DNA from: Nitrospirae bacterium GWF2_44_13
GTDB lineage: Bacteria > Nitrospirota > Thermodesulfovibrionia > Thermodesulfovibrionales > UBA1546
Direction: 5' to 3'
Assembly (NCBI GenBank): GCA_001805105.1
Contig: MHEE01000013.1
Span: 23,826-87,825, forward strand
DNA: 64,000 bases
This document shows positions 27,697 through 63,052 of the stretch, piece after piece (the stretch's first letter is position 1; the number at the start of each line of letters is the position of its first letter). Below the pieces are notes generated by a model, which saw only the letters and a program-made list of their open reading frames with translations, was not told where the DNA came from and ran no database searches. The translations under genes were made by a program, and so were the position numbers.

Positions 27697-30234
27697 TTGT
27701 ACGAAAGATATGACCCCAAAAAAGTTGAGCTGAAATGGCAGAAGTACTGGGCTGAGAAAAATATTTTTAAAACAGAACCCGATGCTTCAAAAAAGAAATT
27801 CTACTGCCTTGAAATGTTCCCCTACCCTTCAGGGAAAATACACATGGGCCATGTCAGAAATTATGCAATCGGCGACGTAATAGCAAGATACAAGAGGATG
27901 AGAGGGTTCAATGTCATCCATCCGATGGGATGGGATGCATTTGGAATGCCTGCTGAGAACGCCGCGATAAAAGAGGGAATCCACCCTGCAAAATGGACCT
28001 ACGAAAATATCACCTACATGAAAAAACAGCTTAATCAGTTGGGGCTCAGCTATGACTGGGACAGAGAGGTTACAACATGCAGCCCTGATTACTACAAGTG
28101 GAATCAGTGGTTCTTCCTGAAGATGTATGAGAAGGGGATTGCATACAGGAAATCATCATTTGTGAACTGGTGCCCTTCATGCATGACTGTTCTTGCAAAT
28201 GAGCAGGTTATTGACAATGGATGCTGGAGATGCGATACAGCGGTAATCAAGAAAGAGTTGGAGCAGTGGTTTTTTCGTATTACGCATTATGCAAAAGACC
28301 TCCTGAAGGCGTGTGATGAGCTTAAGGGCTGGCCTGAAAAAGTTATCTTAATGCAAAAGAACTGGATTGGAAAGAGCGAGGGGCTTGAGGCTGATTTCAA
28401 AGTTGCAGGAAGGGACGAAAGAATCCGTATATTCACTACAAGGGCCGACACTTTATTTGGAGCCACATTTGTATGCCTTGCGCCTACACACCCTTTATCA
28501 GAAAAACTCGTTGTTGATAAAGAAGCTCTTAAGAAGGTCAAGGAACACTACGGCAAAGAAGATGAAAAAATTGGGCTCTTTACAGGACACTACGCAACCA
28601 ATCCCGCGAATGATGAGAAGATTCCAATTTATATAGCAAACTTCGTTCTGATGGAATACGGCACAGGAGCAATAATGTCCGTTCCTGCTCATGACCAACG
28701 GGATTTTGAATTTGCAAAAAAGTACAATCTGCCAATACGGGTGGTAATAGAACCAGAGCAGAAGTCAAAACTTACCGAAGCGTACGAAGATGAAGGCATT
28801 CTTGTTGATTCAAATTCTTTTAGCAAGCTAAGAAGTGATGTTGCAAGAATAGAGATAGCAAAGCACATAGAGAAAAAAGGCTTAGGCAAGAGGGTAATAA
28901 ATTACAAGCTCCGTGACTGGGGAATATCAAGGCAGAGATACTGGGGAACGCCGATACCGATAATTTATTGCGAGAAATGCGGTGTTGTTCCAGTCCCTGA
29001 ACAAGAACTGCCGGTAATCCTTCCAGAGGATGTGAAATTCACAGGCACAGGCGGGTCACCACTTGCAGAGTCAGAAAAATTTGTAAATACAATTTGTCCA
29101 AAATGCAAAGGCAAGGCAAGGCGAGAGACTGATACAATGGACACATTTGTTGATTCATCATGGTATTTCATTGCATATTGCGTTGACAATGGAAAGATTA
29201 ATTTCCAATCCCTAACCCCCAATCCCCAATCCCCAATAAGTTACTGGATGCCTGTTGACCAGTATGTCGGCGGTGTTGAACACGCAGTGCTTCATCTCCT
29301 CTATTCAAGATTTTTTACCCGTGTTATAAAAGACCTTGGAATCATTAACTCTCCGGAGCCTTTCACAAACCTTCTCACGCAGGGAATGGTATGTAAAGAA
29401 ACGTTGAAATGTCCTGAGCATGGCTGGCTCTTACCTGAAGATGTTAAGGATGAGAAGTGCATAAAATGCGGAAAGGCTGTTGACATAGGACGGGTTGAAA
29501 AGATGTCAAAATCAAAAAAGAATGTCATTGACCCTGACCATCTTATAAACAGATACGGGGCAGACACATCAAGGCTCTTTTCGCTCTTTGCTGCGCCGCC
29601 TGAAAGAGACCTTGAATGGTCAGACCAGGGGGTTGAGGGTGCATACAGATTCCTGAATAGGATATGGGGACTCTTATATAAAAATAAATTCAAAATTCAA
29701 AATTCAAAATTCAAAATTGAGGAGCTATCAAGCTATCAGCCATCAGCCGTGCGCCTTCTACGAAAAACACATCAGACCATAAAGCGGGTTACAAACGACA
29801 TGGAGCGCGAATACCACTTCAATACAGCGATTGCAGCGCTCATGGAGCTTGTGAATGATCTATGTTCGTTTGAGCCGAAATCAGACGACGACTGGAAAGT
29901 ATTCAGATTCGGCATTGAAGCGCTTCTGCTTTTGCTTTCTCCATTTTCTCCGCACATATCGGAAGAACTGTGGGAATCTATAGGCAACAAAAAAGGCATA
30001 CTTGAACAGAAATGGCCTTTATGGGATGAGAATATCGCAAAAGAAGAAGAAATAGAACTCGTTATTCAGATTAACGGCAAAGTAAAGGCAAAGATTATGA
30101 TAGCTGCGGGGCAGGCGGACGATGAAGTCAGGGGGAAAGCTCTTGGCGAACCCAGGATACAGGAAATTATAAAGGGGAAAACACTGAAAAAAGTCTTTAT
30201 TGTTAAAGGCAAACTTGTTAACATAGTAATATGA
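27697..30234 (+). CDS. leuS: leucine--tRNA ligase
   Basis: ORF track, 845 aa. HMGH and KMSKS class I motifs and a CP1 editing domain. TTG start according to the ORF track. Confidence 0.97.
29203..29237. repeat. in-frame heptanucleotide array inside leuS (TTCCAAT CCCTAAC CCCCAAT CCCCAAT CCCCAAT)
   Basis: Read directly. Encodes [12 protein letters not shown], between [10 protein letters not shown] and YWMPVDQY. Confidence 0.85.
29681..29751. repeat. in-frame heptanucleotide arrays inside leuS (AAAATAA ATTCAAA x4 ATTGAGG, then AGCTATCA AGCTATC AGCCATC AGCCGTG)
   Basis: Read directly. Encodes [24 protein letters not shown]. Confidence 0.85.
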
Positions 30235-30239
30235 CAAGA

Positions 30240-30740
30240 ATGAAAGTTAAAAGTTTTATGTTACTGTCTACTGTCTACTGTCTACTGTTTACTCTCTCCA
30301 GCTGCGGTTATACGCTGCAGGGCAGAGACACGCTGCCCTTTACCTCTGTCAAAATAGGCAGGATTGAAAACAAAACATTTGAACCGAAATTGGAAGATAA
30401 ATTCCAGAAAGCGCTTGCTGATGAACTCATAAGAAACGGAATAATGATTTCAAATAGCGCAAAACATATAATAAACGGCACTATAGATGACCTGAAGCTA
30501 AGCCCCCTCGCAGAAAAAGAAGGCGTAGCATCCGAATATCAGGTAATTATAAAAGCCAAATTTTTTCTTACATCCCCCGACGGGAAGGTCAAAGAGTTAA
30601 GAAACACAGGAGTTTTTATTGTATCTTTTCCAGGTTCGGGCAATATAGAAAGCTTAGTCGCGGCAAAAGAGCAGGCAACAGAAACTGCTATGAGAAATCT
30701 GGCTTCTGAGATACGTGCCGGAATAGTCTATGGCATGTAG
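30240..30740 (+). CDS. lptE: LPS-assembly lipoprotein LptE
   Basis: ORF track. Lipoprotein signal peptide with lipobox LSSC followed by GYTLQGR. Conserved leuS-lptE-holA gene order. Start (30231 or 30240) is uncertain. Confidence 0.7.
   Translation: MKVKSFMLLSTVYCLLFTLSSCGYTLQGRDTLPFTSVKIGRIENKTFEPKLEDKFQKALADELIRNGIMISNSAKHIINGTIDDLKLSPLAEKEGVASEYQVIIKAKFFLTSPDGKVKELRNTGVFIVSFPGSGNIESLVAAKEQATETAMRNLASEIRAGIVYGM
30241..30296. repeat. heptanucleotide array forming the lptE signal-peptide coding region (TGAAAGT TAAAAGT TTTATGT TACTGTC x3 TACTGTT TACTCTC)
   Basis: Read directly. Translates to KVKSFMLLSTVYCLLFTL. Confidence 0.85.
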
Positions 30741-34984: not shown

Positions 34985-37057
34985 TTACAGCAGTGGAACA
35001 ATCAGAAGCGCAACAATATTAATAACCTTTATCATAGGGTTGATTGCCGGTCCTGCTGTATCCTTGTAAGGATCGCCGACTGTGTCGCCTGTTACAGAGG
35101 CTTTATGTCCATCGCTCCCCTTCTTGTGTACGACACCTTTGTCATCGGTAACGCCCTCTTCAAAGGATTTCTTGGCGTTGTCCCATGCGCCGCCGCCGCT
35201 TGTCATGGCGATAGCCTGGAAAAGTCCGGTAAGGATACTTCCGATAAGTACGCCTCCGAGGGCCTCTCTGCCGAGAGTAAGACCTACAACAACAGGAATA
35301 ACAACTGGGATAAGCGCAGGAACCATCATCTGCTTGATAGCGCCTTTTGTGACAATATCAACGCACTTGCCATATTCCGGCTTTGCCTTATATTCCATAA
35401 TGCCGGGGATCTCCCTGAACTGTCTTCTGACTTCATCAACAATGCTGCCTGCTGCCTTTCCAACAGCCTCCATAAGGAGTGAGCCGTAATAATAAGGGAG
35501 CAGACCGCCGATAAAGAGACCTGCCAGAACCATTGGATTTGAAAGGTCAAAATAAAGGATCTCGCTGAACGATCTTGAATACTCTGCAAAAAGAACCAGA
35601 GCTGCAAGACCTGCTGAACCGATTGCATAACCCTTTGTAACAGCCTTTGTTGTGTTTCCGACTGCATCCAAGGGGTCTGTGATGTTACGGATCTCTGCAG
35701 GAAGTCCTGACATTTCTGCGATACCGCCTGCGTTGTCAGTGATCGGTCCATACGAGTCGATAGCAACAACGATACCTGTCATCGAAAGCATTGAAACCGC
35801 TGACAATGCAATAGCAAAAAGACCGCCAGCTGCATCACCGGCAAATCCACCGCCTAAATGATAAGCTCCGAGAATTGAGGCAACGATAACTATAACAGGC
35901 GCAGCGGTTGATTTCATGCTGACAGCAAGACCTGCTATAACGTTTGTGCCGTGACCGGTCAGACTGGCCTTTGCAATGTGTTTCACCGGGGGATACTGCG
36001 AAGCAGTGAAGTACTCAGTTATAACCACGATCAGTCCGGTCAATGCAAGGCCGATAACCGCCATAAGGAAAACGTTCATCTGTGTAAATGAAGGGTGAGA
36101 GGCCATTGAAGTCGCATCTACGCCTTTCAGAAATTCACCTGTCACAAAATAAAATACTATTGCCGCGAGAACTCCGGCAACGGCAAGCCCCTTATAGAGG
36201 GCCCCCATGATGTACTGGCTTTTGCCAAGCTTTACGGCAAATGTTCCGATAATGGAAGCTATGATTGATATTCCGCCGAGGAGCATCGGGAATTCCACCC
36301 ATGGGCTCTCAGCGCCAAAAACAGTCTTTGCAAGAAGCATTGCCGCAACAAGCGTAACAGTGTATGTCTCATAAAGGTCTGCTGCCATGCCTGCGCAGTC
36401 GCCTACGTTATCACCAACGTTGTCCGCAATAACCGCAGGGTTTCTTGGATCATCCTCGGGGATACCTGCTTCAACTTTTCCAACAAGGTCAGCGCCTACG
36501 TCAGCAGCCTTTGTATAAATACCGCCTGCAATACGCGCAAACACGCTCATGAGTGAGCATCCGAAGCCAAGCCCTACCAGTGCATGGAATGCCATCTCAG
36601 GGGCTGCCTGCTTTGCTATAAAATAAAATCCCGCAAGGCCTATAATTCCGAGACCAACGACCATAACTCCTGTCACTGAGCCGCCCTTGAACGCAAGGCT
36701 GAGCGCAGACTGGAGGCCCTTGTACGCAGCCTGCGTGGTGCGTACGTTTGCGCGGACAGTAACCCACATGCCTACAAAACCGGCAAGCGCTGAACCGACT
36801 GTGCCGACGATAAAGCCGATAGCAGTCCAAATGCCGAGATTCATCGCCGCGATAAGGACAACGAGAATCACTGCAACCATCGCTACAGTTTTATATTCGC
36901 GTGCCAGGAAGGCATAAGCTCCCTCTTTAACAGCATTTGATATCTCCTGCATCTTCGCACTTCCTGCGTCCTGTTTTGATACCCACATTGCGGTCATCAC
37001 AGCGTATATCACGCCTAATAATCCGCAACCTAAGGCAAAAAGAATTGTTGAACTCAT
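34985..37057 (-). CDS. hppA: membrane-bound proton-translocating pyrophosphatase (K+-independent type)
   Basis: ORF track, 690 aa, polytopic. [26 protein letters not shown] and GNTTKA motifs. The Lys in GNTTKA marks the K+-independent subclass. Confidence 0.95.
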
Positions 37058-37172
37058 CTCTCCTCCTTCTAATTTTAATTATAAATCCTCTAATCTTGCG
37101 AAAACTTTAAATACACCAAAAAGATGATTTCGCCGTCACCTCCTTCGATTCTTTTTTCAAAAAACAGCTATT

Positions 37173-37199
37173 ATTATAGAAAAAAATTTTCCTAATCAA
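37173..37199 (-). promoter_or_regulatory. candidate sigma70 promoter for hppA (TTGATT-N15-TATAAT on the minus strand)
   Basis: Read directly from the reverse complement of 37173-37199. The spacing is short, so this is weak. Confidence 0.25.
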
Positions 37200-37212
37200 T
37201 CCGGGTCCGGAA

Positions 37213-38385
37213 TTACTTCACTTCACGTCCCGAATATTTTGCGAACACCAGAGCCGTAGTCCTGTATGCCATATGCGCCATCTTCGAAAACGGCGCATAG
37301 GCAAAAAGAAAAAATACAGCCACAAGATGAGTGAAATACACAGGATATGCGAGAATAGGGATATTAGCGAGCCTTAAAACCTCTGAAAGAATCCCGGTCG
37401 TCACGATAGTTAATATTACGCTGATAAAGAGCCAGTCATAATAGCTTCCGCTTCCTGCCTTTTCAGCATTCTTCTGCCTGTTTGTGATGACCAGAAGTAT
37501 TCCTGAAAGAAGCACGAGGGCGCTGATGTTTCCGAATATCTTCATAGGGTCATACTGAGGATAGGGTGTTTCTCCAAAGTGAAAGATGGCAGTCGGCTGA
37601 ATACCGAAAATTTCATAGCCATATAAATAGGCAACGCCCCAGGCAGTTGTAATAGCAAGGCCGACAAAACCAAAAAATACGAACATATGAGAATTAGCGC
37701 GCTCAACTGTTACATCACATTTCTTAAATCTCTTATGGGTCACGAACTCAAGAATAGTATTAATGATGATCATGAGCATCGGGCCTTTAACCTTCTTCTG
37801 CCACGGGTTGTCGCTTATATCCACGCCTGATTTAAGGTCTTTCCAGTATCTTGTTATTCCCATTATAAACCCGGCCAACGCAAACAATGCCGCGGCGCTG
37901 AATATAACGTCGATGTAGGGAACTTTCATGAAAGTCTCTGCATATACTATCTTTCCTTCAGGGATAAGGGAATGCCCCTGCATCATCAGAGCAAGTATAA
38001 AGATAATTACCGGCACCACGAGAAGAGCAAGCAGGGCTTTCGGACTGCCTACGGCCTTTCCGAGAAAGCTTGGGAAGGCGTAATGCTCTATGCTCAGTTT
38101 TCTTATCGCACCGAGCACTTCACCGGGCTTCGCCCCTCTGGGACAATATGCTGTGCAGTCGCTGCACTGATGACAGAGCCATATATCGGGATTGCTGAGA
38201 AGCTTATCTTTCAGCCCCCACTGCGCGTGCAGCATTTCTTTTCTCGGGAAAGGCTTGTCATCAGGCGTCACATTGCATACAACTGAGCAGGTTGCGCACT
38301 GAAAACATTTTTTGAGAGACTCTCCTCCGGAACTGATAACATCGTTTATAAAATTTAAGTCAGATTTAATAATCTGTTCTGCCAT
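37213..38385 (-). CDS. qmoC: quinone-interacting membrane-bound oxidoreductase subunit QmoC (HdrC-like FeS + heme-b membrane domain)
   Basis: ORF track, 390 aa. CFQCATCSVVC and CHQCSDCTAYCP ferredoxin-like motifs, then ~6 TM helices. Follows qmoAB. Confidence 0.85.
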   Translation of the reverse strand: MAEQIIKSDLNFINDVISSGGESLKKCFQCATCSVVCNVTPDDKPFPRKEMLHAQWGLKDKLLSNPDIWLCHQCSDCTAYCPRGAKPGEVLGAIRKLSIEHYAFPSFLGKAVGSPKALLALLVVPVIIFILALMMQGHSLIPEGKIVYAETFMKVPYIDVIFSAAALFALAGFIMGITRYWKDLKSGVDISDNPWQKKVKGPMLMIIINTILEFVTHKRFKKCDVTVERANSHMFVFFGFVGLAITTAWGVAYLYGYEIFGIQPTAIFHFGETPYPQYDPMKIFGNISALVLLSGILLVITNRQKNAEKAGSGSYYDWLFISVILTIVTTGILSEVLRLANIPILAYPVYFTHLVAVFFLFAYAPFSKMAHMAYRTTALVFAKYSGREVK

Positions 38386-38399
38386 TGACTCCTCCTCTT

Positions 38400-38469
38400 G
38401 TTATAAGTTATAAGTTTAAAGTTAGAAGTTTTTGAACTTTTCACTTTTCACTTTTAACTCTCAACTCCC
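38400..38469. repeat. inverted heptanucleotide arrays filling the qmoB-qmoC intercistronic spacer
   Basis: Read directly: GTTATAA GTTATAA GTTTAAA GTTAGAA GTTTTTG, then AACTTTT CACTTTT CACTTTT AACTCTC AACTCCC. The two arms are approximately complementary. Confidence 0.85.
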
Positions 38470-38473
38470 TTAT

Positions 38474-40699
38474 CTAAAATTCCTTAAACGGATTCGGTCC
38501 TATTTCTTCCACCCTGCTTACAAAATCCTCTATCATCTGGGGCAGCTTGTCGTATTCGTTTATTGCGACCTGCACAAGCTGGCATCTGTCGGATTCCAGT
38601 TGAAGCTTGTCGAGTGTCTCCTTGACCTTGCTAAACCTGTAATTTGCCAGTTCGCTTCCTTTTATAAAGTGGCATTGATAGTTCTCGCCGTACTTGCAGC
38701 CGAGAAGCATCAGCCCGTCAATCCCCCTTGAAAACGCATCAGAAACCCATACCAGGTTCATTGAGCCAAGACACCTCACAGGTATAATCCTTACCTTGGG
38801 ATTTAATTTAATGCGTTTTATCGCAGCGCTGTCCAATGCCGGGTATGCGTCATTTTCACATGCAAGCACTATTATCCTGAACTCGTCTTCATCCACTTCT
38901 ATGGACTTTATCATTGACCCGACCATATCAACGCTGAAGTCTTTGAATGATACAATTCTTTCAGGACAGGCGCCCATACATGTGCCGCATCTGCGGCAGC
39001 GGTTGAGCTTATAAAACGGCGTGCCCTTGTCATCTTCTTCTATTGCGCTGAAGGGGCATTCCTCCGTGCATCTTTTGCATGAAGTGCATTTGATCATCAT
39101 AGGATCAGGGAAGGTTACATCCCACGCCCTCGGATGGACTGCAATGCCTTTTGCAATATGTTCAACGCACTGAATTGCCTTTAAGGCCGCGCCTGCAGCG
39201 TCTTCCGTAGCGTCCGCCATTGTCATCGGCTGTTTTACGCAGCCGGCGGCATAGACTCCTGTTCTTCTTGTCTCATACTGAAAGCATATGAAGCCCGAGT
39301 CTGCAAATCCGTATGCGCCTTCAAGCGTCGGGATTTCGGGACCCTGTTTGTATGCAAGATTCAAAATAAATTCCGGTTTTGGTGTGTTATCAAGATATTC
39401 CTTCTTTGCTATATCGCCTTTCTTACCTGCTTCAGTAAGTCCATCAAGATATTCCTGCGGGGCGCGTGTGGCAGGCACTATGCCTGTGGCAAGCACGACA
39501 AGGTCCGCCTCCACCTTTATTTTTTCTCCAAGCAGCGTGTTCTCGGCCTCCACAAAAAGATTGCCGTTGCCGGCGTCGCTTATGCCTGTTACCTCAGCCT
39601 TTGTCAATAAAACACCGGGATCATTCTGCATGTTTTTATAGAAGATTTCTGTCTGTCCGGGTGTCCTGATATCTTTATAAAATATCATCGCAATTGCGTC
39701 GCCGTTTTTCTCTCTTATGTACTTGGCCTGTTTAAGTGAGGTGCCGCAGCAGAATGATGAGCAGTACGGGAGATGGTTCGGGTCCCTTGAGCCTGCGCAT
39801 TGAATGAATGCGACCTTCTTTGCCTCTTTACCGTCTGAAGGACGGGTTATCTTTCCCTTCTTTGCCATCTCTTCCATCTGGACATTCGTGATTACATTGG
39901 GCTTGCCGTATCCGAGATGTTCAAGCTTTGAGGCGTCATAGGGCTTCCATCCAACAGCCATGATGACCGCTCCTACCTTAACGGTTTCGCTGTTTCCGTT
40001 CTTTCTGATTGTCACGTCAAAAAGTCCGGGCTGCCCTTCGGTCTTTTCTATTGTCGATGATTTAAAAACCTTGATGTTGGAATGCGCCTCAACTTCTTTT
40101 ATCCTGTCAAATATCTTAGGTTCTTCCAGTTTGTCAAACGGCTCCTGCCTCGGCGTTTCCTTATAAAGTTTTGCAGCCCAGCCGCCAAGCTCTGCTTCCT
40201 TTTCTACAAGCACCACCTGATAACCTGCTTTGGCTGACTCAATCGCTGCAGACAGTCCAGCAGTTCCTCCGCCAACGACGAGTATGGTATTGCTAAGGTC
40301 AGGGAGGATACTAGGTTCAGGAAGGTCACCTTTCTGCGTCTTGATTATTCCCATTACCATATAATCGTCTGCAAGGCTTTGTGCGTCACTGCTCATCGGC
40401 TCCGCAGTCCACGCAACAAATTCTCTCAGGTTGACCCTTTCCGTTATAGTGCAGGGGAAATCAAATTCATCTGTTTTTACACGCGGCGAACATGCGCCGA
40501 TGATTAAAGTATTTGTGCCTTCTTTTATATCATTTTTTATTAACTCCAAACCTTCAGGGCCGCATAAGACCTGGTGCTCTTTTATAATATCTGCAGGGAC
40601 CTTGCCCTTTAATGCGACCCTTTTTTTGAGTTTTTCAAAATCAATCGCTTCACCGATGCCGCAGCCTTTGCACATATATACGCCGAATTTCTTTTCCAT
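38474..40699 (-). CDS. qmoB: QmoB (HdrA-like flavoprotein with FeS and MvhD-like domains)
   Basis: ORF track, 741 aa. FAD-binding VVGGGTAGLSAA, CxxCxxCxxxCP clusters, and its position between qmoA and qmoC. Confidence 0.9.
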   Translation of the reverse strand: MEKKFGVYMCKGCGIGEAIDFEKLKKRVALKGKVPADIIKEHQVLCGPEGLELIKNDIKEGTNTLIIGACSPRVKTDEFDFPCTITERVNLREFVAWTAEPMSSDAQSLADDYMVMGIIKTQKGDLPEPSILPDLSNTILVVGGGTAGLSAAIESAKAGYQVVLVEKEAELGGWAAKLYKETPRQEPFDKLEEPKIFDRIKEVEAHSNIKVFKSSTIEKTEGQPGLFDVTIRKNGNSETVKVGAVIMAVGWKPYDASKLEHLGYGKPNVITNVQMEEMAKKGKITRPSDGKEAKKVAFIQCAGSRDPNHLPYCSSFCCGTSLKQAKYIREKNGDAIAMIFYKDIRTPGQTEIFYKNMQNDPGVLLTKAEVTGISDAGNGNLFVEAENTLLGEKIKVEADLVVLATGIVPATRAPQEYLDGLTEAGKKGDIAKKEYLDNTPKPEFILNLAYKQGPEIPTLEGAYGFADSGFICFQYETRRTGVYAAGCVKQPMTMADATEDAAGAALKAIQCVEHIAKGIAVHPRAWDVTFPDPMMIKCTSCKRCTEECPFSAIEEDDKGTPFYKLNRCRRCGTCMGACPERIVSFKDFSVDMVGSMIKSIEVDEDEFRIIVLACENDAYPALDSAAIKRIKLNPKVRIIPVRCLGSMNLVWVSDAFSRGIDGLMLLGCKYGENYQCHFIKGSELANYRFSKVKETLDKLQLESDRCQLVQVAINEYDKLPQMIEDFVSRVEEIGPNPFKEF

Positions 40700-40705
40700 A
40701 TGTCT

Positions 40706-41959
40706 CTACCTCCTCGCGCTCTGAATGGTTTTGATTGCGACCCCTGTTGCATCCTGAACCGATTTTGCAACGTCAACAGGACTCTTCGCCGTTCCGACCG
40801 CGTACATGCCTTTCTTTAAGTATGACGCTACTACAAAACCATCGTGTGTATATGAAATCTCGCCAGGTACCTTTGAAGCCTTTGTTGAGGGCACCATACC
40901 GGCTGCAAGTACAACCATATCGTATTTTTCAGTAATCTTATTGCCCGCCAATACGTCTTCTACCACTAATTCAACATCACCGGTCGCGCTGTCTTCCGTA
41001 ATCTTGGCGACCTTGCCCTTTGTCAGCGTTACATTCGGGTCTTCCTTGACCTTCCAGTAAAACTGTTCATACCTGCCGGGGGTCCTGATGTCAATATAGA
41101 ATATCCGCACCTTGGAATCAGGATACTGCTCCCTTAAATATGTGGCCTGTTTCAAAGAAGCCATGCAGCAGATATATGAGCAGTACGGCAGGTGGTTTTC
41201 ATCCCTGCTCCCGGCGCACTGGACAAAGGCGATGTTCTTGACTTCCTTTCCGTCGGATGGCCTCAGTATCTTACCGGATGTCGGACCATTTATCGAGGCG
41301 AGCCTCTCCATCTGCATATTAGTTATTACATTCTTGATATTCCCGCCGCCGAGGTTATCCAGCTTGGCCGTGTCATATAAGTCCCAGCCTGTTGCAATAA
41401 CAACTGACGCCACATTCAGATTGACCGTATCGGGCTTCATATCAAGATCAATTGCATCGTATTTGCATGCCTCAACGCATTTTGCGCATGACTTCCCCTT
41501 ACAGTGCTTGCCGTCAATGGCATACTTAAACGGAAAAGCTTGATTGTGGGTAATGTATGCGGCCTTTGTCTTATCGAGACCGAAGTTGAATTCATTCGGC
41601 ATCTCAACAGGACATGCCTCATTGCAGGCATTGCAGCCGACACACTTGTCATTAATAAACCGCGAGTTAATTTTTATTGTGACATTGTAATTCCCTTCCT
41701 GGCCGGAAATACTCTCAACCTCTGCAAGGGTATAAAAGGAAATGTCCGCATTGTTTTTGATCCTCTTAAAATTTATCTCCAGTCCGCAGTTTGGAGGACA
41801 CAGTTTCGGGAAATACTTATTCAATTGGGTTACCCTTCCTCCGAGAAACGGGGTCTTTTCCACAATAACCACATCTGATCCTGCCTCAGCCGATTCAACT
41901 GCGGCAGTAAGCCCGCTGAACCCTCCTCCGATTACTAAAACCTTTTTCTTTTCTGCCAT
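40706..41959 (-). CDS. qmoA: QmoA (HdrA-like flavoprotein)
   Basis: ORF track, 417 aa. VIGGGFSGLTAA dinucleotide fold and CVGCNACNEACP cluster. Directly downstream of aprA. Confidence 0.9.
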   Translation of the reverse strand: MAEKKKVLVIGGGFSGLTAAVESAEAGSDVVIVEKTPFLGGRVTQLNKYFPKLCPPNCGLEINFKRIKNNADISFYTLAEVESISGQEGNYNVTIKINSRFINDKCVGCNACNEACPVEMPNEFNFGLDKTKAAYITHNQAFPFKYAIDGKHCKGKSCAKCVEACKYDAIDLDMKPDTVNLNVASVVIATGWDLYDTAKLDNLGGGNIKNVITNMQMERLASINGPTSGKILRPSDGKEVKNIAFVQCAGSRDENHLPYCSYICCMASLKQATYLREQYPDSKVRIFYIDIRTPGRYEQFYWKVKEDPNVTLTKGKVAKITEDSATGDVELVVEDVLAGNKITEKYDMVVLAAGMVPSTKASKVPGEISYTHDGFVVASYLKKGMYAVGTAKSPVDVAKSVQDATGVAIKTIQSARR

Positions 41960-42000
41960 CTTTATCCTCCTTAAGGCAGTAAGTATTTCTCTTTAGTCCA

Positions 42001-42068
42001 TTGTCATTTCTGCGAAAACAGGAATCTGTATTTTCTCATCCGGATTCCCGCTTTTGCGGGAATGACAA
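42001..42068. repeat. REP-like hairpin doublet in inverted orientation (intact copy ATTCCCGC-TTTT-GCGGGAAT plus degenerate copy)
   Basis: Read directly. 42001-42026 is TTGTCATTTCTGCGAAAACAGGAATC. The reverse complement of 42041-42068 is TTGTCATTCCCGCAAAAGCGGGAATCCG. Identity is 21/26. Confidence 0.7.
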
Positions 42069-42119
42069 AACAATAACATTTACTAACTGAAAACTTTTTG
42101 CAACTTGCTGTAAACTTAT

Positions 42120-42148
42120 GGGGAGGGCTTAGCTTATTAGCCCTCCCC
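42120..42148 (-). promoter_or_regulatory. strong stem-loop 12 nt after the aprA stop (mRNA stabiliser or partial terminator)
   Basis: GGGGAGGGCT / AGCCCTCCCC 10-bp stem with a 9-nt loop. No clear U-run on the minus strand. Confidence 0.55.
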
Positions 42149-42160
42149 ATATAACATCAT

Positions 42161-44164
42161 CTACTTGAACATCTGAACGTACGGCACTTTCTTTAACTCC
42201 CATGTGTTGTTTTCTGCATTGTATGTAGAGTTTGTGAAGCACTTCCAGTTCGCATCATCAATCTTGTTGTAGTCACCCCTGTAGTAGTAACCGGGATATC
42301 TGGATTCCTCTCTGAAGAGCATATGCCTTGCATGTGCCTCTACCGACAGAATTCTGTGGTAATTTTCAAAGCATCTCAAGAGATCATGGAGATTTGATGC
42401 CGCCATCTTGCCTGCATCCTCTTTGAGCATCTCAAGCTGCTTTAATCCTTCTTCAAGCATGGTTTTTGAGGTCATGTACCATGTGGCTACTCCGCCAAAG
42501 TATTCATCCGATATCTTCATCAGTCTTGCCTGAAGCGCTTTCGGTCCAATATAGTTCGGGTTAACGCCAGGTTCGGTTGTATAGGTTTTGTGTTTCTCAT
42601 AAATCTCAAACGGCAGATAAAGTTCGGCCGCAATCTCATCAAGAGACATTTTGGGCGCCGGCTTGTAGCCTGCATTATCGAGGATGTATGCTATTGCACC
42701 CTTTGCTGCCTGCCTGCCCTCTGCATGAGACCCTGATGAGAATTTGTGTCCCGATGCTCCGACAACGTCGCCTGCCATAAAGAGACCGGGTACAGTAGAC
42801 ATTCTGTTATATCCCCAAGAATAATGCTCGGGTGTGCCGGCAATATCGCCAGGGCCGCTTACCCAGAACCCTGCACAGCCTGCGTGCGAGCCGAGCAGAT
42901 AAGGCTCTGTAGGCATAATCTCGGAAACGCTCTTATCCGGCTCAATGTTCCTTGCTGCCCAAAGAGACGCCTGTCCGATAGCCATGTCAAGGAAGTCTTC
43001 CCATGCCTCTGCCTCAAGGTGTTTCATCTTCTTGGCACCTTCTTTATCGCCAAGTTTCTCTTTAAAGGCTGTGCCTAATGCCTTCATCGCCGCAGGAGTT
43101 TGCATAAGAATCGGGCCTCTGCCGTCCTTCATGGCCCTCATCATTAGATGGTTTCTTATAGCTGTACCGAGACCTTTTGCATAGTCTCCGTATCTGGCTA
43201 CTGCGTCATCAAAATATTCCTTATCCGCACAGTAATCATTGCCAAAGCTGTCTGTTGCTTTAGCTTTAAAGAACAGAAACCATGCGCCGACAGGACCATA
43301 ACCATCTTTAAATCTTGCTGGTACGAACCTGTTTTCCATCAAGGTAAGCTCTGCTCCTGCCTGCATTCCGAAGGCATAACCTGAACCCGCGCTGAACACG
43401 GGATACCATGTCCTTCCCATACCCTCGCCGACCGACCTCGGCCTGAAGCAGTTAACCGCTCCGGCAGTTGCACAGATCATTGCCTTTGCCTTAAAGGAAT
43501 AAATCTTGTTTTCTCTTGTGCTGAATCCGATGGCTGCTGCCACGTTTTTGCCGTTCGTATCTTTTACGGCTTTCACTATGAATACCCTCTCAAAGTGGTT
43601 CTGCTCCATGCCGGTTTTTTCCCGGTTGGTCTGGAGCGCCTTCTTTGCTGCCTCTGCAACAATCACTTTGTAGGACTCACCGTTAATCATTATTTGCCAT
43701 TTGCCGGATCTGACCGGCATGCCACCATCCTTTAATGACTTCTTTCCGGCCTCAGCAGCCTGAAAACCGTCAAGTGAAAAACCGTCATCGCCTTTCTTCC
43801 AGATCGGAAGACCCCATTCTTCAAAGAGTTGAACTGAATCGTCAACATGCCTGCCAAGGTCAAATACAAGGTCCTCCCTAATTATACCCATCAGGTCATT
43901 TCTCACGTATTTGACATAATCCTCAACCTTGTTCTCACCGATATATGTATTGATCGCGGACAGACCCATTGCAACGGCGCCGCTTCTGTCTGTTGCTGCT
44001 TTATCAACCATGACAACCTTCAGTCCCTTTTCATTGGCCCAGCGGCATGCCTCATAAGCTGCGCCGCATCCTGCCATGCCTCCGCCCATGATCAGAAGAT
44101 CACACTCAACTTCGGTTACTTCAGGCCTCTTACAATATGAAAATGTACAAGTTTCTTTTTCCAT
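42161..44164 (-). CDS. aprA: adenylylsulfate (APS) reductase alpha subunit
   Basis: ORF track, 667 aa. FAD fold LIMGGGMAGCGAA, fumarate-reductase-like flavoprotein body, paired with aprB upstream. Confidence 0.95.
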   Translation of the reverse strand: MEKETCTFSYCKRPEVTEVECDLLIMGGGMAGCGAAYEACRWANEKGLKVVMVDKAATDRSGAVAMGLSAINTYIGENKVEDYVKYVRNDLMGIIREDLVFDLGRHVDDSVQLFEEWGLPIWKKGDDGFSLDGFQAAEAGKKSLKDGGMPVRSGKWQIMINGESYKVIVAEAAKKALQTNREKTGMEQNHFERVFIVKAVKDTNGKNVAAAIGFSTRENKIYSFKAKAMICATAGAVNCFRPRSVGEGMGRTWYPVFSAGSGYAFGMQAGAELTLMENRFVPARFKDGYGPVGAWFLFFKAKATDSFGNDYCADKEYFDDAVARYGDYAKGLGTAIRNHLMMRAMKDGRGPILMQTPAAMKALGTAFKEKLGDKEGAKKMKHLEAEAWEDFLDMAIGQASLWAARNIEPDKSVSEIMPTEPYLLGSHAGCAGFWVSGPGDIAGTPEHYSWGYNRMSTVPGLFMAGDVVGASGHKFSSGSHAEGRQAAKGAIAYILDNAGYKPAPKMSLDEIAAELYLPFEIYEKHKTYTTEPGVNPNYIGPKALQARLMKISDEYFGGVATWYMTSKTMLEEGLKQLEMLKEDAGKMAASNLHDLLRCFENYHRILSVEAHARHMLFREESRYPGYYYRGDYNKIDDANWKCFTNSTYNAENNTWELKKVPYVQMFK

Positions 44165-44177
44165 TTATACCTACCTC

Positions 44178-44597
44178 CTATTCTGTTCTTGCCGGCCCGT
44201 TAAAGAACCCCGGCTGTTTAAGCGTTGCAAAATCCGGCGCCGGCTTGCCTGCATACGGATCAACGGAACCTTCTGTTGTTGTTCTTATAGGGAACTTAAA
44301 TCTCTTCAATACCCCATTCCTGAACTTGATCGTCCACATAATAGAGTCGGTGCCTCTCAATGGGATAGTGCTGGACCCAAGGGGAACAAAGTCTGAATAA
44401 CCCCTGACCTCAATGGCCTGCTGAGGGCATATCTTCACACAGTTAAAGCACTCCCAGCACTGCTCGGGTTCCTGATTGTATGCCTTCATCTTTTCCCTGT
44501 CAAGCGCCATCAAATCATGAGGACAGATATACTGACATGCAGTCTTATCCTGCGCCTTGCAACCGTCACACTTTTCTGTAATAACAAAACTCGGCAT
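44178..44597 (-). CDS. aprB: adenylylsulfate (APS) reductase beta subunit
   Basis: ORF track, 139 aa. MPSFVITEKCDGCK...CQYICPHD and CWECFNCVKICP two-[4Fe-4S] motifs with an extended C-terminal tail. Confidence 0.95.
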   Translation of the reverse strand: MPSFVITEKCDGCKAQDKTACQYICPHDLMALDREKMKAYNQEPEQCWECFNCVKICPQQAIEVRGYSDFVPLGSSTIPLRGTDSIMWTIKFRNGVLKRFKFPIRTTTEGSVDPYAGKPAPDFATLKQPGFFNGPARTE

Positions 44598-44700
44598 TTT
44601 TACCTCCTTCAGCGATATTGTTTTTAATACAAAATCGGCTTTAGCTTAAAGCCGTAAATCTCTTACTTATTCCTTCACCCCCTTTTCATTAAGTTTATAG

Positions 44701-44764
44701 TGTCAGTGGCAAATCTTACTGACACTAGCCACTGATACTGAATACTGATTTACTGACACTGTTA
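44701..44764. repeat. heptanucleotide array of the ACTGNNN/CAGT family in the sat-aprB spacer
   Basis: Read directly: TGTCAGT ...TTACTGA CACTAGC CACTGAT ACTGAAT ACTGATT TACTGAC ACTGTTA. Confidence 0.7.
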
Positions 44765-44808
44765 TCTTATGCGCCTTTAGAATATTTATGAACTTTAATT
44801 TCGACAAT

Positions 44809-46008
44809 TTATTTTTCAAGACTCTGATAATACTTAATCAGAATTTCAGCCACTTCAGGACGTGAAAATTCTTTAGGCGGCGCAATACCCTTGCCTAACA
44901 TTTCACGAACTTTTGTACCTGAAAGCAGAACAAAGTCTTCTTTTGTATGATCAGGCGCTTCACACATCATCATAACCTTTTTCAGTTTCTTAGAGTATGC
45001 AGTGTGGTCAGCCTTGAAGATCTCAATTTTCAGCGCACCGGCAGGAACTTCCTTATCAAAGATGGTTTGCGCATCGAATGGACCGTAATGATCACCAACA
45101 CCTGCATGGTCACGGCCAACAATAAAGTGGGTTGCGCCCATGTTCTGACGGAATATAGCGTGCAATACACCCTCACGTGGGCCAGCATAAAGCATATCGA
45201 AACCGTAACCAGTAACCATTGCACTGTTTTTCGGGAAGTACAGCTCGACCATCTTACGGATCGCAGCATCACGAACAGGCGCAGGGATATCTCCTTTTTT
45301 CAATTTACCAAGCAACATGTGAATAACCAGGCCATCACAACCTAAACGGTCCATTGCCATATGGCAAAGTTCTTCGTGGGCCAGATGCATCGGGTTACGG
45401 GTCTGGAAAGCAACAACTTTCTTCCAGCCGCGCTCAGCGATTTCGTTACGGATTTCAACTGCGGTACGGAAAGTGTCAGGGAATTCATCCTGGAAGTAAG
45501 AGAAGTTTAGTACTTTAATTGGACCTGACAGACAAACCTTACCCTGAGCATTGAATGCTTCAACACCCGGATGCGCTTCGGGGGGCTTGGGACGGTAAAC
45601 TTTTTCAGACATCATCGCCATATCTGCATCGCTGAATTCTTCAACCGCTTTTACATCCATAACTGCCAGCACAGGATTGCCTTCGACATTTGGATCTTTG
45701 AGGGCAATACGGTCACCTGCTTTAATTTTTCCTGCGTCTTTAACCAGGTTTAAAATTGGGACAGGCCAGAACAAACCGGATGTTGTTTTCATATCTTTAG
45801 CAACAGACAAGGCATCCGCTTTATTCATGTAGCCTGTTAATGGGTTGAAGTAACCGCCACCAAGCATAACTGCATTCGCTGCAGTAGCTGAGCTTACAAT
45901 AATAGAAGGCAGACCTTCAGCTTCTTTCTGCAGGGCTTCATTTTTAGCCGTGTCATATACAAATAGTGGATTTAGTTCGTCTGAACCATGTGGTTTAATC
46001 AATGCCAT
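44809..46008 (-). CDS. sat: sulfate adenylyltransferase (ATP sulfurylase)
   Basis: ORF track. QTRNPMHLAHE and GRDHAGVG motifs. Start moved from the TTG at 46035 to ATG at 46008, which has AGGAGG 5 nt upstream. Confidence 0.95.
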   Translation of the reverse strand: MALIKPHGSDELNPLFVYDTAKNEALQKEAEGLPSIIVSSATAANAVMLGGGYFNPLTGYMNKADALSVAKDMKTTSGLFWPVPILNLVKDAGKIKAGDRIALKDPNVEGNPVLAVMDVKAVEEFSDADMAMMSEKVYRPKPPEAHPGVEAFNAQGKVCLSGPIKVLNFSYFQDEFPDTFRTAVEIRNEIAERGWKKVVAFQTRNPMHLAHEELCHMAMDRLGCDGLVIHMLLGKLKKGDIPAPVRDAAIRKMVELYFPKNSAMVTGYGFDMLYAGPREGVLHAIFRQNMGATHFIVGRDHAGVGDHYGPFDAQTIFDKEVPAGALKIEIFKADHTAYSKKLKKVMMMCEAPDHTKEDFVLLSGTKVREMLGKGIAPPKEFSRPEVAEILIKYYQSLEK

Positions 46009-46061
46009 TTCTTCCTCCTGTTTAGTTTTTATCAATAAAAAAAGCTTTTTCCCCTAAATTT

Positions 46062-46709
46062 CTATTTAAGCCCTAACACTTCACATACTTTTTTGAATAT
46101 GTCGTCTATGCTGCCGGTGCCCTGCACTGACTTCACCATGCCTTTTTTGCCGTAGTAGTCCATAAGCGGAGCTGTCTGGGCATTGTATACCTCAAGCCTC
46201 TTCTTTATAGTCGCTTCCTTGTCATCATCCCTCTGGAAAAGTTCCTTGCCGCACTTATCGCAAACGCCTTCTTTTTTAGGGGCATTAAAATAGATATTAA
46301 ACATCTGGCCGCAGGCCTTGCAGGTCCTTCTTCCGGTAAGGCGTTTCATGAGATCTTCAAATGGGACATCGACGCTGAGGGCCGCAGTTAAAGACATATC
46401 AAGGCTGGCGAGCATCTTATCGAGCTCTTCCGCCTGCTTTGTGTTTCTCGGGAACCCGTCAAGGATGTATCCCTTTTTGCAGTCATCCTTCTTAAGCCTG
46501 TCCTCCACAAGACCCAAAACTACCCTGTCAGGCACCAGTTCTCCTTTGTCCATATAGGACTTTGCCTCTTTGCCGAGCGGCGTGCCCTCCGCTACATTCT
46601 GCCTTAAGATATCGCCTGTTGAAATCTGCGGAATGCCGTATTTGTCAATAAGCTTCTTTGCCTGAGTTCCTTTGCCCGCTCCAGGCGCACCTAACAATAC
46701 TATCCTCAT
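46062..46709 (-). CDS. adk: adenylate kinase (Zn-lid type)
   Basis: ORF track, 215 aa. GAPGAGKGTQ P-loop and lid CKACG...CDKCG. About 53 nt upstream of sat on the same strand. Confidence 0.95.
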   Translation of the reverse strand: MRIVLLGAPGAGKGTQAKKLIDKYGIPQISTGDILRQNVAEGTPLGKEAKSYMDKGELVPDRVVLGLVEDRLKKDDCKKGYILDGFPRNTKQAEELDKMLASLDMSLTAALSVDVPFEDLMKRLTGRRTCKACGQMFNIYFNAPKKEGVCDKCGKELFQRDDDKEATIKKRLEVYNAQTAPLMDYYGKKGMVKSVQGTGSIDDIFKKVCEVLGLK

Positions 46710-46906
46710 ACTTACCCCCTTTATTTCCCTCTGCTGTCAGCTAACTTAAAAACAACGCAAAATACAAATCCGATAAAACAACTGCCTGTATTTAATGCAG
46801 GACTTTCAAAAAAATTTAAGCAGTCTTTGTATTTGTAAGTGTTACATACTATTCTAAACATTGGGTTTTTTCAAGAAAAAAATAAAAATTATTCTATTAA
46901 TTTTTC

Positions 46907-47512
46907 TTATAAACCCCTTTTAAGAAAGTCATAAAGCCTTCCAAGCGCCACGCCCCTGTGGCTGAGAAGGTCTTTTTCCTTATCTGACATCTCTGCAAAT
47001 GTCCTTCCATGCCCTTTTGGATAAAAAACAGGGTCGTATCCAAACCCGTTAGCCCCTTTTGGCTTCTTTCCTATCAACCCCTCCGCATATCCTGAAAAAG
47101 TTTCCACCCTGCTGTCAGGAAATGCCAGAGCTATAACACACACAAACCTCCCGATTCTTTTATCATCAGGCAGAGAATTCATTTCCTTCAGCAGCTTTTC
47201 ATAATTTTTTATGTCCTTTCTGTCGTCTGCGCCTTCTCCTGCATACCTCGCAGAGAAAACTCCGGGCGCTCCGTCCAAGGCGTAAACCTCAAGCCCCGAG
47301 TCATCGGCAAGGGCAGGCATCTTCGTATATTTTGAAACAGCCCTTGCCTTCTTCACGGCATTTTCTTCAAAGGTCTTGCCGTCTTCTTCAACTTTAGGGC
47401 ATTCGGGAAAATCATCAAGCGTGTAGATAGTGACAGGCATATCCTTCACAATCCTCTTTATCTCTTCAACCTTTTTCTTGTTTCTCGTTGCAAGGACTAT
47501 GTTCAAATCCAC
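46907..47512 (-). CDS. rdgB: non-canonical purine NTP pyrophosphatase (RdgB/HAM1)
   Basis: ORF track, 201 aa. ATRNKKKVEE, DDSGLEV and FGYDPVF motifs. Confidence 0.9.
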   Translation of the reverse strand: MDLNIVLATRNKKKVEEIKRIVKDMPVTIYTLDDFPECPKVEEDGKTFEENAVKKARAVSKYTKMPALADDSGLEVYALDGAPGVFSARYAGEGADDRKDIKNYEKLLKEMNSLPDDKRIGRFVCVIALAFPDSRVETFSGYAEGLIGKKPKGANGFGYDPVFYPKGHGRTFAEMSDKEKDLLSHRGVALGRLYDFLKRGL

Positions 47513-47563
47513 ACCTCAAAAATATGTAATGATACTCAGACTACGAGCCTGCCTCTGGCTTCC

Positions 47564-47895
47564 CCTAAAAATCAGGAAACATCTTGATTGAAAGCTCTTT
47601 ATTATCGCCAATAACCGCCTTTGCTGTAAGAATACCACCCTCAACATAGGCAAGGCTGAACTCCTTAAAACCTCTGCGGACGAATTCCTTTGCATCAGCA
47701 GGGCATCCTCTCTCGCACCCTGCTATCCCCCTCACCATTTGCGGGATCAGCCTCTTACATCAACGCCGTTAATAGCAGCGCCTTTTGAAGAACAGAATGC
47801 CCCTATCTGTCCTACAACAAAATCCACATCAATGTGGAATGGACTTTCGATGGCAATAGATATTGAATCACTTCCAACGCCAACGCTAATCTCCA
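47564..47895 (-). other. two adjacent short ORFs in different frames (49 aa + 57 aa); possibly one frameshifted gene of unknown function
   Basis: Manual translation. ORF1, 47895..47746: MEISVGVGSDSISIAIESPFHIDVDFVVGQIGAFCSSKGAAINGVDVRG*. ORF2, 47737..47564: MVRGIAGCERGCPADAKEFVRRGFKEFSLAYVEGGILTAKAVIGDNKELSIKMFPDF*. The ORF2 frame is open back to 47758 and so overlaps the ORF1 end. A TATAAT lies upstream at ~47972-47977 (minus strand). Confidence 0.3.
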
Positions 47896-48056
47896 TTGAT
47901 TCCCCCAAGGTGTTATTAAACTCCTGCGCTCTGACACTTTGATACTTTTGTTTTTCTTATGTGACAGCGTGGTATTATAGATTGATAACGCATCAGGCTT
48001 CAAGCTATATTGCATTTTTTGAAATGTTTCTACAAAATACCCTTACGGCGGCTGTT

Positions 48057-62560: not shown

Positions 62561-62573
62561 ACCCCCTGTTACA

Positions 62574-62664
62574 AAAAGTTCAAAGTTGAAAGTTCAAAGT
62601 TGACAATTAACAATTCAAAATGAAGGATTCCATAATTTTTCATTTTGCTTTTTGAATTTTGCAT
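62574..62664. repeat. inverted heptanucleotide arrays filling the rplR-rpsE spacer
   Basis: Read directly: AAAAGTT CAAAGTT GAAAGTT CAAAGTT GACAATT AACAATT CAAAATG ... TTTTCAT TTTGCTT TTTGAAT TTTGCAT TTTAAAA. CAAAATGA pairs with TCATTTTG. Confidence 0.85.
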
Positions 62665-62665
62665 T

Positions 62666-63034: not shown

Positions 63035-63052
63035 CTTGCAACCTCCAATATA

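Follow-up and report, generated by a model that had tools for sequence, protein, structure and literature searches.

We analyzed a stretch of 64,000 nt (hereafter the window) from Nitrospirae bacterium GWF2_44_13, an uncultured groundwater Nitrospirota of the Thermodesulfovibrionia (contig MHEE01000013.1, 23,826-87,825; GCA_001805105.1), in which tandem arrays of 7-nt units lie between cistrons of the sulfate-reduction cluster adk-sat-aprBA-qmoABC-pyrophosphatase. The genes of this cluster are read from the minus strand (Table 1) and score above NCBIfam equivalog cut-offs, except qmoA and qmoB, which were named from HdrA-type matches below the curated cut-off together with their position in the cluster. 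A QmoC protein identical to that of the window is found in groundwater Nitrospirae genome bins, and, among GTDB species, the 80 closest to it by AprA are without exception bins of Nitrospirota or Thermodesulfovibrionales; most of those with long enough contigs share the gene order of the window. Our comparison set comprises ~160 loci (designated by L numbers), of which 80 were taken at species level via AprA and 80 from metagenomes via QmoB, with 5 more via QmoC; operon genes were placed in these loci by tblastn, and every spacer was read.

Table 1. Coordinates of the cluster genes, spacers, repeat arrays and RNA features in the window.
Feature	Position	Strand	Description
Array before tRNA-Thr	1643-1713		GTTAAAA-type arm, then TAACTCN-type arm
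tRNA-Thr	1724-1796		
Array in spacer upstream of dapF			
dapF in-frame array	9249-9297		
dapF in-frame array pair	9588-9657		Loop insertion of ~17 residues relative to solved DapF structures
leuS in-frame arrays	29200-29244 and 29678-29758		In variable stretches; encode loop/linker peptides in LeuRS
lptE in-frame array	30253-30301		TACTGTC repeats encode signal peptide
Membrane pyrophosphatase	34985-37057	minus	NCBIfam
qmoC	37213-38385	minus	NCBIfam
qmoB-qmoC spacer	38386-38473		88 nt
qmoC Shine-Dalgarno region	38389..38398	minus	GAGGAGGAG; AGGAGG unpaired in predicted hairpin
3' arm, qmoB-qmoC	38400..38434	minus	CAAAAAC UUCUAAC UUUAAAC UUAUAAC UUAUAAC
5' arm, qmoB-qmoC	38435..38469	minus	GGGAGUU GAGAGUU AAAAGUG AAAAGUG AAAAGUU; purine-rich
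qmoB	38474-40699	minus	HdrA-type match below curated cut-off
qmoA	40706-41959	minus	HdrA-type match below curated cut-off
aprA-qmoA spacer	41960-42160		201 nt
Palindromic insert	42004-42068	minus	65 nt, GTCATTCCCGCAAAAGCGGGAATCC...GAAATGAC; adjoins decayed repeats
Decayed AAGUU-type repeats	42069..42116	minus	AAGUUUAC AGC AAGUUGC AAAAGUUUUC AGUUAGU; between aprA hairpin and palindromic insert
aprA hairpin	42117..42151	minus	13 bp, GC-rich, AUGGGGAGGGCU...AGCCCUCCCCAU; starts 9 nt past aprA stop
aprA	42161-44164	minus	NCBIfam
aprB	44178-44597	minus	NCBIfam
sat-aprB spacer	44598-44808		211 nt
aprB Shine-Dalgarno	44602..44610	minus	GAAGGAGGU
8-bp hairpin, aprB 5' leader	44636..44654	minus	CGGCTTTA-AGC-TAAAGCCG, also written CGGCUUUA-AGC-UAAAGCCG
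Shine-Dalgarno-like leader box	44672..44686	minus	AAAAGGGGGUGAAGG; ~85 nt ahead of aprB start and not followed by a start codon
Degenerate CAGU-type repeat region	44698..44766	minus	Starts directly after old sat stop codon
Fossil 3' end of displaced second sat type	44767..44808	minus	42 nt: 13 codons (IVEIKVHKYSKGA) and stop
sat	44809-46035	minus	NCBIfam
adk	46062-46709	minus	NCBIfam
prmC in-frame arrays	53844-53886 and 54058-54101		Just ahead of two catalytic motifs
rplR|rpsE array	62561-62665		Junction widened to 105 nt; AAUGCAA/AAUUCAA-type units
rplF|rplR array	63035-63084		Junction widened to 50 nt; CAACUUUGAA-type units

Ten heptamers had been described in the qmoB-qmoC spacer by an earlier reading made from the letters alone (the sequence-only reading), and they are found exactly so at 38400-38469, where Tandem Repeats Finder (TRF) calls period 7 at 38400-38430 and 38436-38459. 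On the mRNA, the 5' arm begins 5 nt past the qmoB stop codon (AUAAG between), and the 3' arm abuts a AAGAGGAGG stretch containing the qmoC Shine-Dalgarno sequence; from the end of this arm, the mRNA reads AAGAGGAGGAGUCA and then AUG. Folded as RNA, the arms form an imperfect 66-nt hairpin (38400-38465, -17.5 kcal/mol) that is broken at each unit boundary, with z = -2.2 relative to dinucleotide shuffles and 6 of 200 shuffles equally stable. The inverted pair ending at the qmoC ribosome-binding site, also proposed by that reading, agrees with this fold: the arms are inverted, and the hairpin stops just before the site.

The arrays are conserved at levels well above those of silent codon positions in the genes beside them, with orthologous arrays 71-96% identical overall and third codon positions 41-71%. 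Between the window and L098, the qmoB-qmoC spacer is 89.7% identical, against 47% and 54% at the third codon positions of qmoB and qmoC, respectively; the corresponding values are 84.7% against 46-49% for L006 and L103, 96% against 66-71% for L173 and L059, and 71% against 41-50% for L175 and L104, a pair in which the arms are kept and the loop is different. The sat-aprB spacers of the window and L022 are 92% identical across their whole length, and third codon positions of aprB 60%. The hairpin proper of the window differs from that of L098 by 2 substitutions and exactly one 7-nt unit, the orthologous 5' arm in L098 and L099 having exactly one unit fewer. That the arrays are under selection at these junctions is thus, in our judgment, well supported. 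It also bears on an explanation that we consider unlikely, in which the arrays are neutral by-products of lineage-wide 7-nt slippage that persist where harmless and have no effect on expression. The identity between orthologous arrays runs unit by unit with the order kept, so concerted evolution within an array cannot explain it, and this argues against neutral by-products, as do the roughly fivefold enrichment over flanking co-directional spacers and the replacement of arrays by plain hairpins at the same site, both described below. Neutral persistence would fit other observations: half of the window arrays lie in genes, in variable loops; the DapF loop shows the same pattern as the spacers, one site with different units; L004 and L172, though closely related, cleanly lack the qmoB-qmoC hairpin; the hairpins that do form are weak, and not every array forms one; there is no strand asymmetry; and no function has been found for the heptamer repeats of Xanthomonas or Nostoc.

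Identity between sites tells a different story from identity between orthologues. Arrays of one unit family at different sites are 55-68% identical, near a shuffled baseline with a mean of 49% and a maximum of 59%, and same-site orthologues are 85% identical; same-site similarity therefore reflects orthology plus constraint rather than copies of a mobile element. We regard it as highly improbable that the arrays are mobile or hypervariable DNA, whether transposable palindromes resembling miniature inverted-repeat transposable elements (MITE) or repetitive extragenic palindromic (REP) elements, or phase-variable contingency repeats. Such an origin would account for clean presence or absence between close relatives and for unit families that recur elsewhere in related genomes, as the AAGTT type does at aprA|qmoA in L004. 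Against it, cross-site identity near baseline does not fit a consensus of REP, bacterial interspersed mosaic element (BIME) or MITE kind, and neither a target duplication nor terminal repeats were found at the boundary between L172, which lacks a qmoB-qmoC array, and L173, which has one. Contingency repeats would be expected to vary in length, but ten independent assemblies, drawn from several samples though possibly of one clonal population, are identical in sequence with no length variation across the arrays covered; their agreement also means that the arrays are not an assembly artefact.

A comparison with homologous spacers had been proposed in the sequence-only reading and was run here on the ~160 loci: the same junctions are reoccupied, and the units differ. 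At qmoB|qmoC, relatives carry units of GGGATTA/CCCCAAA, AGGTTA/AACCTT (period 6), AGCTGTC, AGTAGTG/CTAC, CAGTGTC/GACACTG and TTTCAAA, and further ones of period 8 (GAAGGTNN and AAAGTGTC) and period 9 (CGGTTTAAA), nearly always as an inverted pair between stop codon and ribosome-binding site. A search for orthologues of the AAGTT-type spacer through the five additional QmoC-based contigs returned other unit families only. Array density in relatives is 1.89 per kb at qmoB|qmoC, 1.22 at aprA|qmoA and 0.32 at sat|aprB and qmoC|pyrophosphatase, compared with 0.14 in other intergenic DNA of the related loci and 0.007 in coding sequence. Among co-directional spacers of 50-400 nt in the 80 related species, arrays of period 6 to 9 occur in 30 of 234 operon spacers (12.8%) and in 6 of 206 flanking spacers (2.9%), an odds ratio of 4.9 with p = 1.7e-4, a value that is optimistic because the species share ancestry and for which flank genes were called by a simple longest-ORF (open reading frame) rule. 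In the clade where QmoB identity is 75% or more, distinct qmoB-qmoC spacers of 45 nt and over fold significantly in 21 of 29 cases, and 14 of the 29 are periodic; nine more distinct spacers of this clade, at 12-41 nt, fall below that length. L091 and L093 have compact plain GC hairpins at qmoB-qmoC in place of arrays. What recurs is the hairpin, not the repeat. Similar arrays are present in cultured Thermodesulfovibrio relatives.

The diversity of units also weighs on a second explanation, which we likewise hold to be unlikely: that what counts is the 7-nt register and not the hairpin, the arrays being a periodic platform along which a protein whose footprint on single-stranded RNA or DNA is ~7 nt lines up to regulate translation, decay or anti-termination at the junction. 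Several properties are those that such a platform would have. Period 7 holds across unit sequences; each unit has a fixed core (AGTT/AACT or CAGT/ACTG) and varies at other positions; conservation between the window and L098 extends to unpaired positions; and even arrays with no fold occupy precisely the interval from a stop codon to the ribosome-binding site after it. Precedents can be named as well: NAG triplets at 7-nt intervals are read by HutP-type hexamers, a binding protein has been suggested for the TAACTGA and Nostoc heptamers, and the candidates proposed for other heptamer repeats are cold-shock protein and ribosomal protein S1. However, unit families differ by locus and species (AAGTT, CAGTG, GGGATTA, AGGTTA, AGTAGT, AATGCAA and TTCAAAA), a variety that no one sequence-specific reader would match; periods 6, 8 and 9 also occur in relatives, and plain GC hairpins substitute at the same site.

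Across the window, only period 7 scores at 80% self-match over five copies, with 5 regions, and periods 4-6 and 8-12 give none. The window and related loci together (1.48 Mb) hold 54 period-7 arrays, as against 0 in Markov-shuffled sequence. We count ~18 period-7 arrays in the 64 kb, about half in frame inside genes and the rest in co-directional spacers; array-bearing spacers make up 5 of 38 co-directional, 0 of 6 divergent and 0 of 6 convergent spacers. The distance from the upstream stop codon to the first base of an intergenic array is 0-6 nt, and an inverted partner lies within 90 nt for 22 of 71 arrays compared with 2 of 71 in the control. At least six unit families are present in the window (AAGTT, ACTG, TTCAAAA, CCCCAAT, GATACAG and GTGACGG). 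The array before tRNA-Thr fills a 79-nt spacer after a gene of the metallo-beta-lactamase fold and has an architecture like that of the qmoB-qmoC pair. Within dapF the repeats encode the peptide QDTRYGIQDYRASYITNHASRP, and close DapF homologues have different repeat-encoded peptides in the corresponding loop. Rfam 15 at gathering score finds only the tRNA-Thr in the whole window, and a relaxed Rfam search of 38300-44900 gives chance-level matches only (E >= 0.05).

This distribution qualifies the suggestion that the arrays mark boundaries at which subunit stoichiometry must differ. Their placement at the operon junctions is indeed non-random, as the difference between 12.8% and 2.9% shows, but it is not special to such boundaries, similar arrays being found between rplF, rplR and rpsE, before a tRNA gene, and inside dapF, leuS, lptE and prmC. 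As to the presence of arrays in close relatives, which had been named together with expression ratios as a check on a role in mRNA stability, several of these relatives, L004 and L172 among them, have no qmoB-qmoC hairpin.

The sat-aprB spacer had been credited with the same heptamer arrays as qmoB-qmoC, which is too strong, since its repeats belong to a CAGTG family and those of qmoB-qmoC to an AAGTT/AACTT family. The stretch at 44701-44764, taken for an ACTGNNN array, is real as an enrichment: it has 7 ACTG/CAGT where 0.42 would be expected, a density unmatched by any other 64 nt of the window. It is not a regular heptamer array, however: the spacings are 13, 6, 7, 8 and 6, period-7 self-match is 0.57, and TRF makes no call. 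It is a decayed quasi-heptamer array of the CAGTG unit family. In the mRNA, a short inverted partner is available to the CAGU region (UAGUGUCAGU...ACUGACACUA, with CAGUGGC...GCCACUG as an alternative pairing), and the resulting hairpin is modest (-18.6 kcal/mol, z = -2.0). Among relatives, the spacers upstream of the aprB leader box contain a hairpin in 39 of 58 cases and are periodic in 14 of 58, 11 of these with period 7. Plain hairpins after sat in relatives are without T-runs, and so look more like processing or stability punctuation than termination.

Closer to aprB, the 8-bp hairpin previously placed at 44636-44654 is exact, and on the minus strand a U-rich run ATTTTGTATT (also written AUUUUGUAUU) follows it. 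This hairpin is kept in 15 relatives, with one pair changing from U-A to C-G via U-G intermediates, a pattern that speaks for a structure formed by sense-strand RNA. The leader box upstream of it recurs as GGRGGTG at -72 to -123 of aprB in 60 of 76 distinct relatives; a possible function is that of a 5' stabiliser, or of a ribosome standby site, on the aprBA message. No conserved promoter was found upstream of the box among the relatives' spacers.

The sat gene itself has left a scar in this spacer. The present sat ends in YYQSLEK and a TAA stop, directly followed in frame by IVEIKVHKYSKGA and a further stop; a second sat type, 44-48% identical and found at the same position in relatives, ends in KVEIKVHKYSEGA. 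The match of the in-frame tail to the C-terminus of the second type indicates that one sat replaced the other, of which a 42-nt fossil remains. This origin of the tail, together with its occurrence in shifted frames in other relatives, led us to reject programmed readthrough of the sat stop codon. The same scar is seen in L008, L010, L003, L011, L017, L026, L030 and L065, some in shifted frames. In L022, the loop of the orthologous sat-aprB array hairpin contains a 73-nt insert (...GTCACCCTGAGCGTTCGACTGAGCTCACGCTGAAGGCTTGTCGAAGGGTG..., at about L022:3615-3690), and similar sequences interrupt the aprA-qmoA spacers of L017, L022, L026 and L031; the insert looks like a small dispersed element.

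The aprA-qmoA spacer has a whole-spacer fold with z = -5.2 and carries a GC-rich hairpin (Table 1) that was absent from the sequence-only reading. A GC hairpin (GGGGAGGGC...GCCCTCCCC) stands right after aprA in nearly all relatives, being conserved throughout the order, and is mostly followed by a T-run in the classic shape of a terminator; that of the window has the stem of an intrinsic terminator and no clear T-run. The terminator-like aprA hairpin would be the likeliest expression break of the cluster, and if AprBA exceeds Qmo, aprA-qmoA is the junction most likely responsible. Downstream of this hairpin, qmoABC of one sub-clade is preceded by a perfect TTGACA-17-TATAAT promoter, and other relatives have inverted arrays of AATGCAA/TTGCATT-type units at that promoter position. 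Where the window has decayed AAGUU-type repeats, L004 has an intact AAGTT/AACTT inverted pair. A palindromic insert of the type seen in the window also interrupts the aprA-qmoA spacer in L002.

The contrast between the aprA hairpin and the array hairpins is relevant to the proposal that the latter are attenuators, i.e. partial intrinsic terminators that lower transcription of aprBA, qmoC and the pyrophosphatase. A T-run does follow the array hairpin in several relatives (L006, L103, L092, L094, L003 and L044), and the 44636-44654 hairpin fits a simple terminator pattern. Nevertheless, we judge attenuation distinctly improbable, since the array hairpins of the window have AT-rich, interrupted stems with no U tract behind them, that of qmoB-qmoC being followed by AAGAGGAGG, the sat-aprB hairpins of most relatives are without a T-run, and a canonical terminator is present elsewhere in the cluster, after aprA. 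Scanned for promoters and terminators, 36900-47900 gave as many matches as shuffled sequence, with terminator-like ones no commoner than chance (13 versus 11.6 in shuffles) and no convincing promoter in the array spacers. By eye, a promoter-like TTCAAA-18-TATAAC can be picked out in the qmoB-qmoC array, but its conserved final T is missing.

Other candidates for the spacers were considered and discarded. A small peptide could be read from a TTG-initiated mini-ORF in the qmoB-qmoC spacer, but the one-unit indel of L098 shifts its frame, so it is not conserved. A recombination breakpoint at the same spacer had been suspected from the low identity of QmoC to that of L004 and was dismissed, the first 300 nt of qmoC being 87% identical. 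A Rex operator was sought by eye, given that Rex controls qmo, sat, adk and pyrophosphatase in Desulfovibrio alaskensis, and half-sites in the spacers are wrongly spaced. With respect to qmoC itself, the first 300 nt are 82-87% identical to L004 and L098 and the full-length protein just 58-61%, which implies either that the membrane part has diverged far beyond the N-terminal iron-sulfur part or that it has been exchanged. In L171-L173 and L175, the nearest relatives by QmoC, a CBS-domain gene of 146 residues lies between qmoC and the pyrophosphatase; the window has no such gene and a 155-nt spacer there instead (37058-37212).

The arrays can be securely placed among heptameric simple repeats, the kind represented by short tandemly repeated repetitive (STRR) sequences and by Xanthomonas GGGAATC. 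STRR heptamers were reportedly first described in Calothrix, by Mazel and co-workers in 1990. Intercistronic stem-loops that give segmental mRNA stability are known from the REP elements of E. coli malEFG and the puf hairpins of Rhodobacter. As in those systems, the predicted hairpins described here have no U tract and lie between cistrons, directly downstream of the gene they would protect; they are weaker than the malEFG and puf stem-loops and interrupted every 7 nt, and where REP elements share a consensus over hundreds of copies, these arrays share architecture only. As Mrazek et al. (2007) are summarized in PMC4692102, heptameric repeats are over-represented in many bacterial genomes and polymerase slippage has been suggested as their source. 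In Xanthomonas, GGGAATC repeats form 70-75 inverted pairs, close to the ORF on their 5' side, mostly between co-oriented and rarely between divergent ORFs, and the GGGGA(T/C)T repeats of Nostoc include GGGGATT arrays, one of them between pecE and pecF of the pec operon (PMC4692102); no function was found for either repeat (Rehm et al. 2015, PMC4692102). The window arrays resemble these G-rich repeats in their tandem 7-nt units, mostly in ~4-5 copies at many dispersed loci, and in their many convergent inverted pairs able to form stem-loops; those of the window arrays that are intergenic also resemble the Xanthomonas repeats in lying between co-oriented genes, near the upstream stop codon. They differ in having many, mostly AT-rich families where Xanthomonas and Nostoc have one dominant G-rich unit capable of forming a G-quadruplex; the operon arrays of the window contain no G-tracts, and no single unit dominates the window, dominance of one unit per genome being the mark of named sub-families and not of the heptamer class as a whole. 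Moreover, 7-11% of the Xanthomonas repeats lie inside genes, compared with about half in the window, and conservation relative to silent codon positions was not measured in that study.

Two further groups of heptamers invite comparison. The TTTTGAA/TTCAAAA heptamers of Nostoc PCC 7120 occupy non-coding parts of operons and sites near start codons and are suspected translational or transcriptional elements (bioRxiv 10.1101/2022.06.06.494920), and their TTCAAAA unit occurs in the window, in leuS (29686-29718) and after rplF (63068-63086). The Calothrix and Nostoc heptamers belong to another phylum, however, and the emphasis there is on proximity to promoters and start codons, not on inverted pairs anchored at stop codons. 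For the TAACTGA repeats of marine Beggiatoaceae, post-transcriptional control by an RNA-binding protein has been proposed (MacGregor 2015, PMC4679880). These too are intergenic direct repeats of a heptamer (2-6 copies) placed non-randomly with respect to ORFs, but they have one fixed unit, are almost always direct (a single indirect repeat is reported), and end ~1 nt ahead of start codons. The arrays described here have variable units, begin at stop codons and, in a third of cases, form inverted pairs. TAACTGA itself is not enriched here, with 11 single matches against 7.3 expected, none of them tandem, so the arrays do not belong to that family. Literature searches found nothing on heptamer repeats in Thermodesulfovibrionia, where they have apparently not yet been described, and no description of hairpin or repeat elements between apr-qmo cistrons.

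The best explanation, which we advance tentatively, is that repeats made by slippage are kept as intercistronic hairpins that act as transcript punctuation. Since the arrays of the window and L098 differ in length by a single 7-nt unit, we infer that units are gained and lost in single 7-nt steps, as by slippage, anywhere in the genome. Arrays would then survive only at tolerant sites, which here are loops of proteins, a signal peptide, and co-directional spacers. At operon junctions (after sat, after the terminator hairpin of aprA, and between qmoB and qmoC) the arrays commonly have two inverted arms, which would pair into an imperfect hairpin extending from just past the stop codon to just before the next ribosome-binding site; arms once established are probably held by purifying selection. 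Such a hairpin may block 3' exonucleases or mark a processing site, allowing segments of the transcript to decay independently, and may also fold a long spacer away, keeping the stop codon and the next start site close. The repeat would be the building material and not the function, with relatives using plain GC hairpins or other units at the same two places. As to mechanism, RNA hairpins affecting segmental stability or processing are the best available candidate, proposed with slightly greater caution than the explanation as a whole, and a role of the arrays in differential mRNA stability, as suggested by the sequence-only reading, is plausible.

Several results weigh against punctuation by hairpins, in addition to the shared ancestry and simple flank-gene calls that qualify the enrichment. 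The window hairpins are weak (-17.5 and -18.6 kcal/mol, z of about -2), and two arrays fold no better than shuffles, that before tRNA-Thr (z = -0.65) and that of the rplR|rpsE spacer (z = +0.15). Positions predicted to be unpaired are likewise conserved in the comparison of the window with L098, an outcome not expected from a pure hairpin model. Sense and antisense folding energies of 39 spacers show no asymmetry (p = 0.51), and G-U pairs in 84 array spacers make up 10.3% on the sense strand versus 9.0% (p = 0.23); with both strands folding equally and no excess of G-U, these results do not separate a role at the RNA level from one at the DNA level. The L004 qmoB-qmoC spacer is 13 nt long and has no hairpin, and a 64-nt AGGTTA-type array hairpin is cleanly absent from L172 (9974-10000) and present in L173 (9910-10000), so the hairpin can be gained or lost whole and is dispensable in some close relatives. 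The lack of a strand-specific signature, the conserved unpaired positions and the non-folding arrays keep two rival explanations alive, the protein platform with its 7-nt register and tolerated by-products that have no function.

Heptameric repeats have been known in bacteria for decades, and their function has never been shown. The ~160 related genomes provide a good comparative setting, in which one conserved, highly expressed operon has, at the same two or three junctions, hairpins of different units, plain hairpins, or nothing. A vague question thereby becomes a testable one: whether an array hairpin at a defined junction changes transcript ends, half-lives or subunit ratios. For annotation, repeat-encoded peptides in the housekeeping proteins of this lineage are real, and long spacers within its ribosomal-protein operons are not errors. 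It is conceivable, though rather improbable, that inverted heptamer-array hairpins constitute a selectively maintained class of intercistronic punctuation in Thermodesulfovibrionia, in which a dedicated factor reading a 7-nt register sets the segment output of highly expressed operons such as sat-aprBA-qmoABC-pyrophosphatase and those of the ribosomal proteins. If true, this would offer the first functional handle on the heptamers of cyanobacteria, Xanthomonas and the giant sulfur bacteria.

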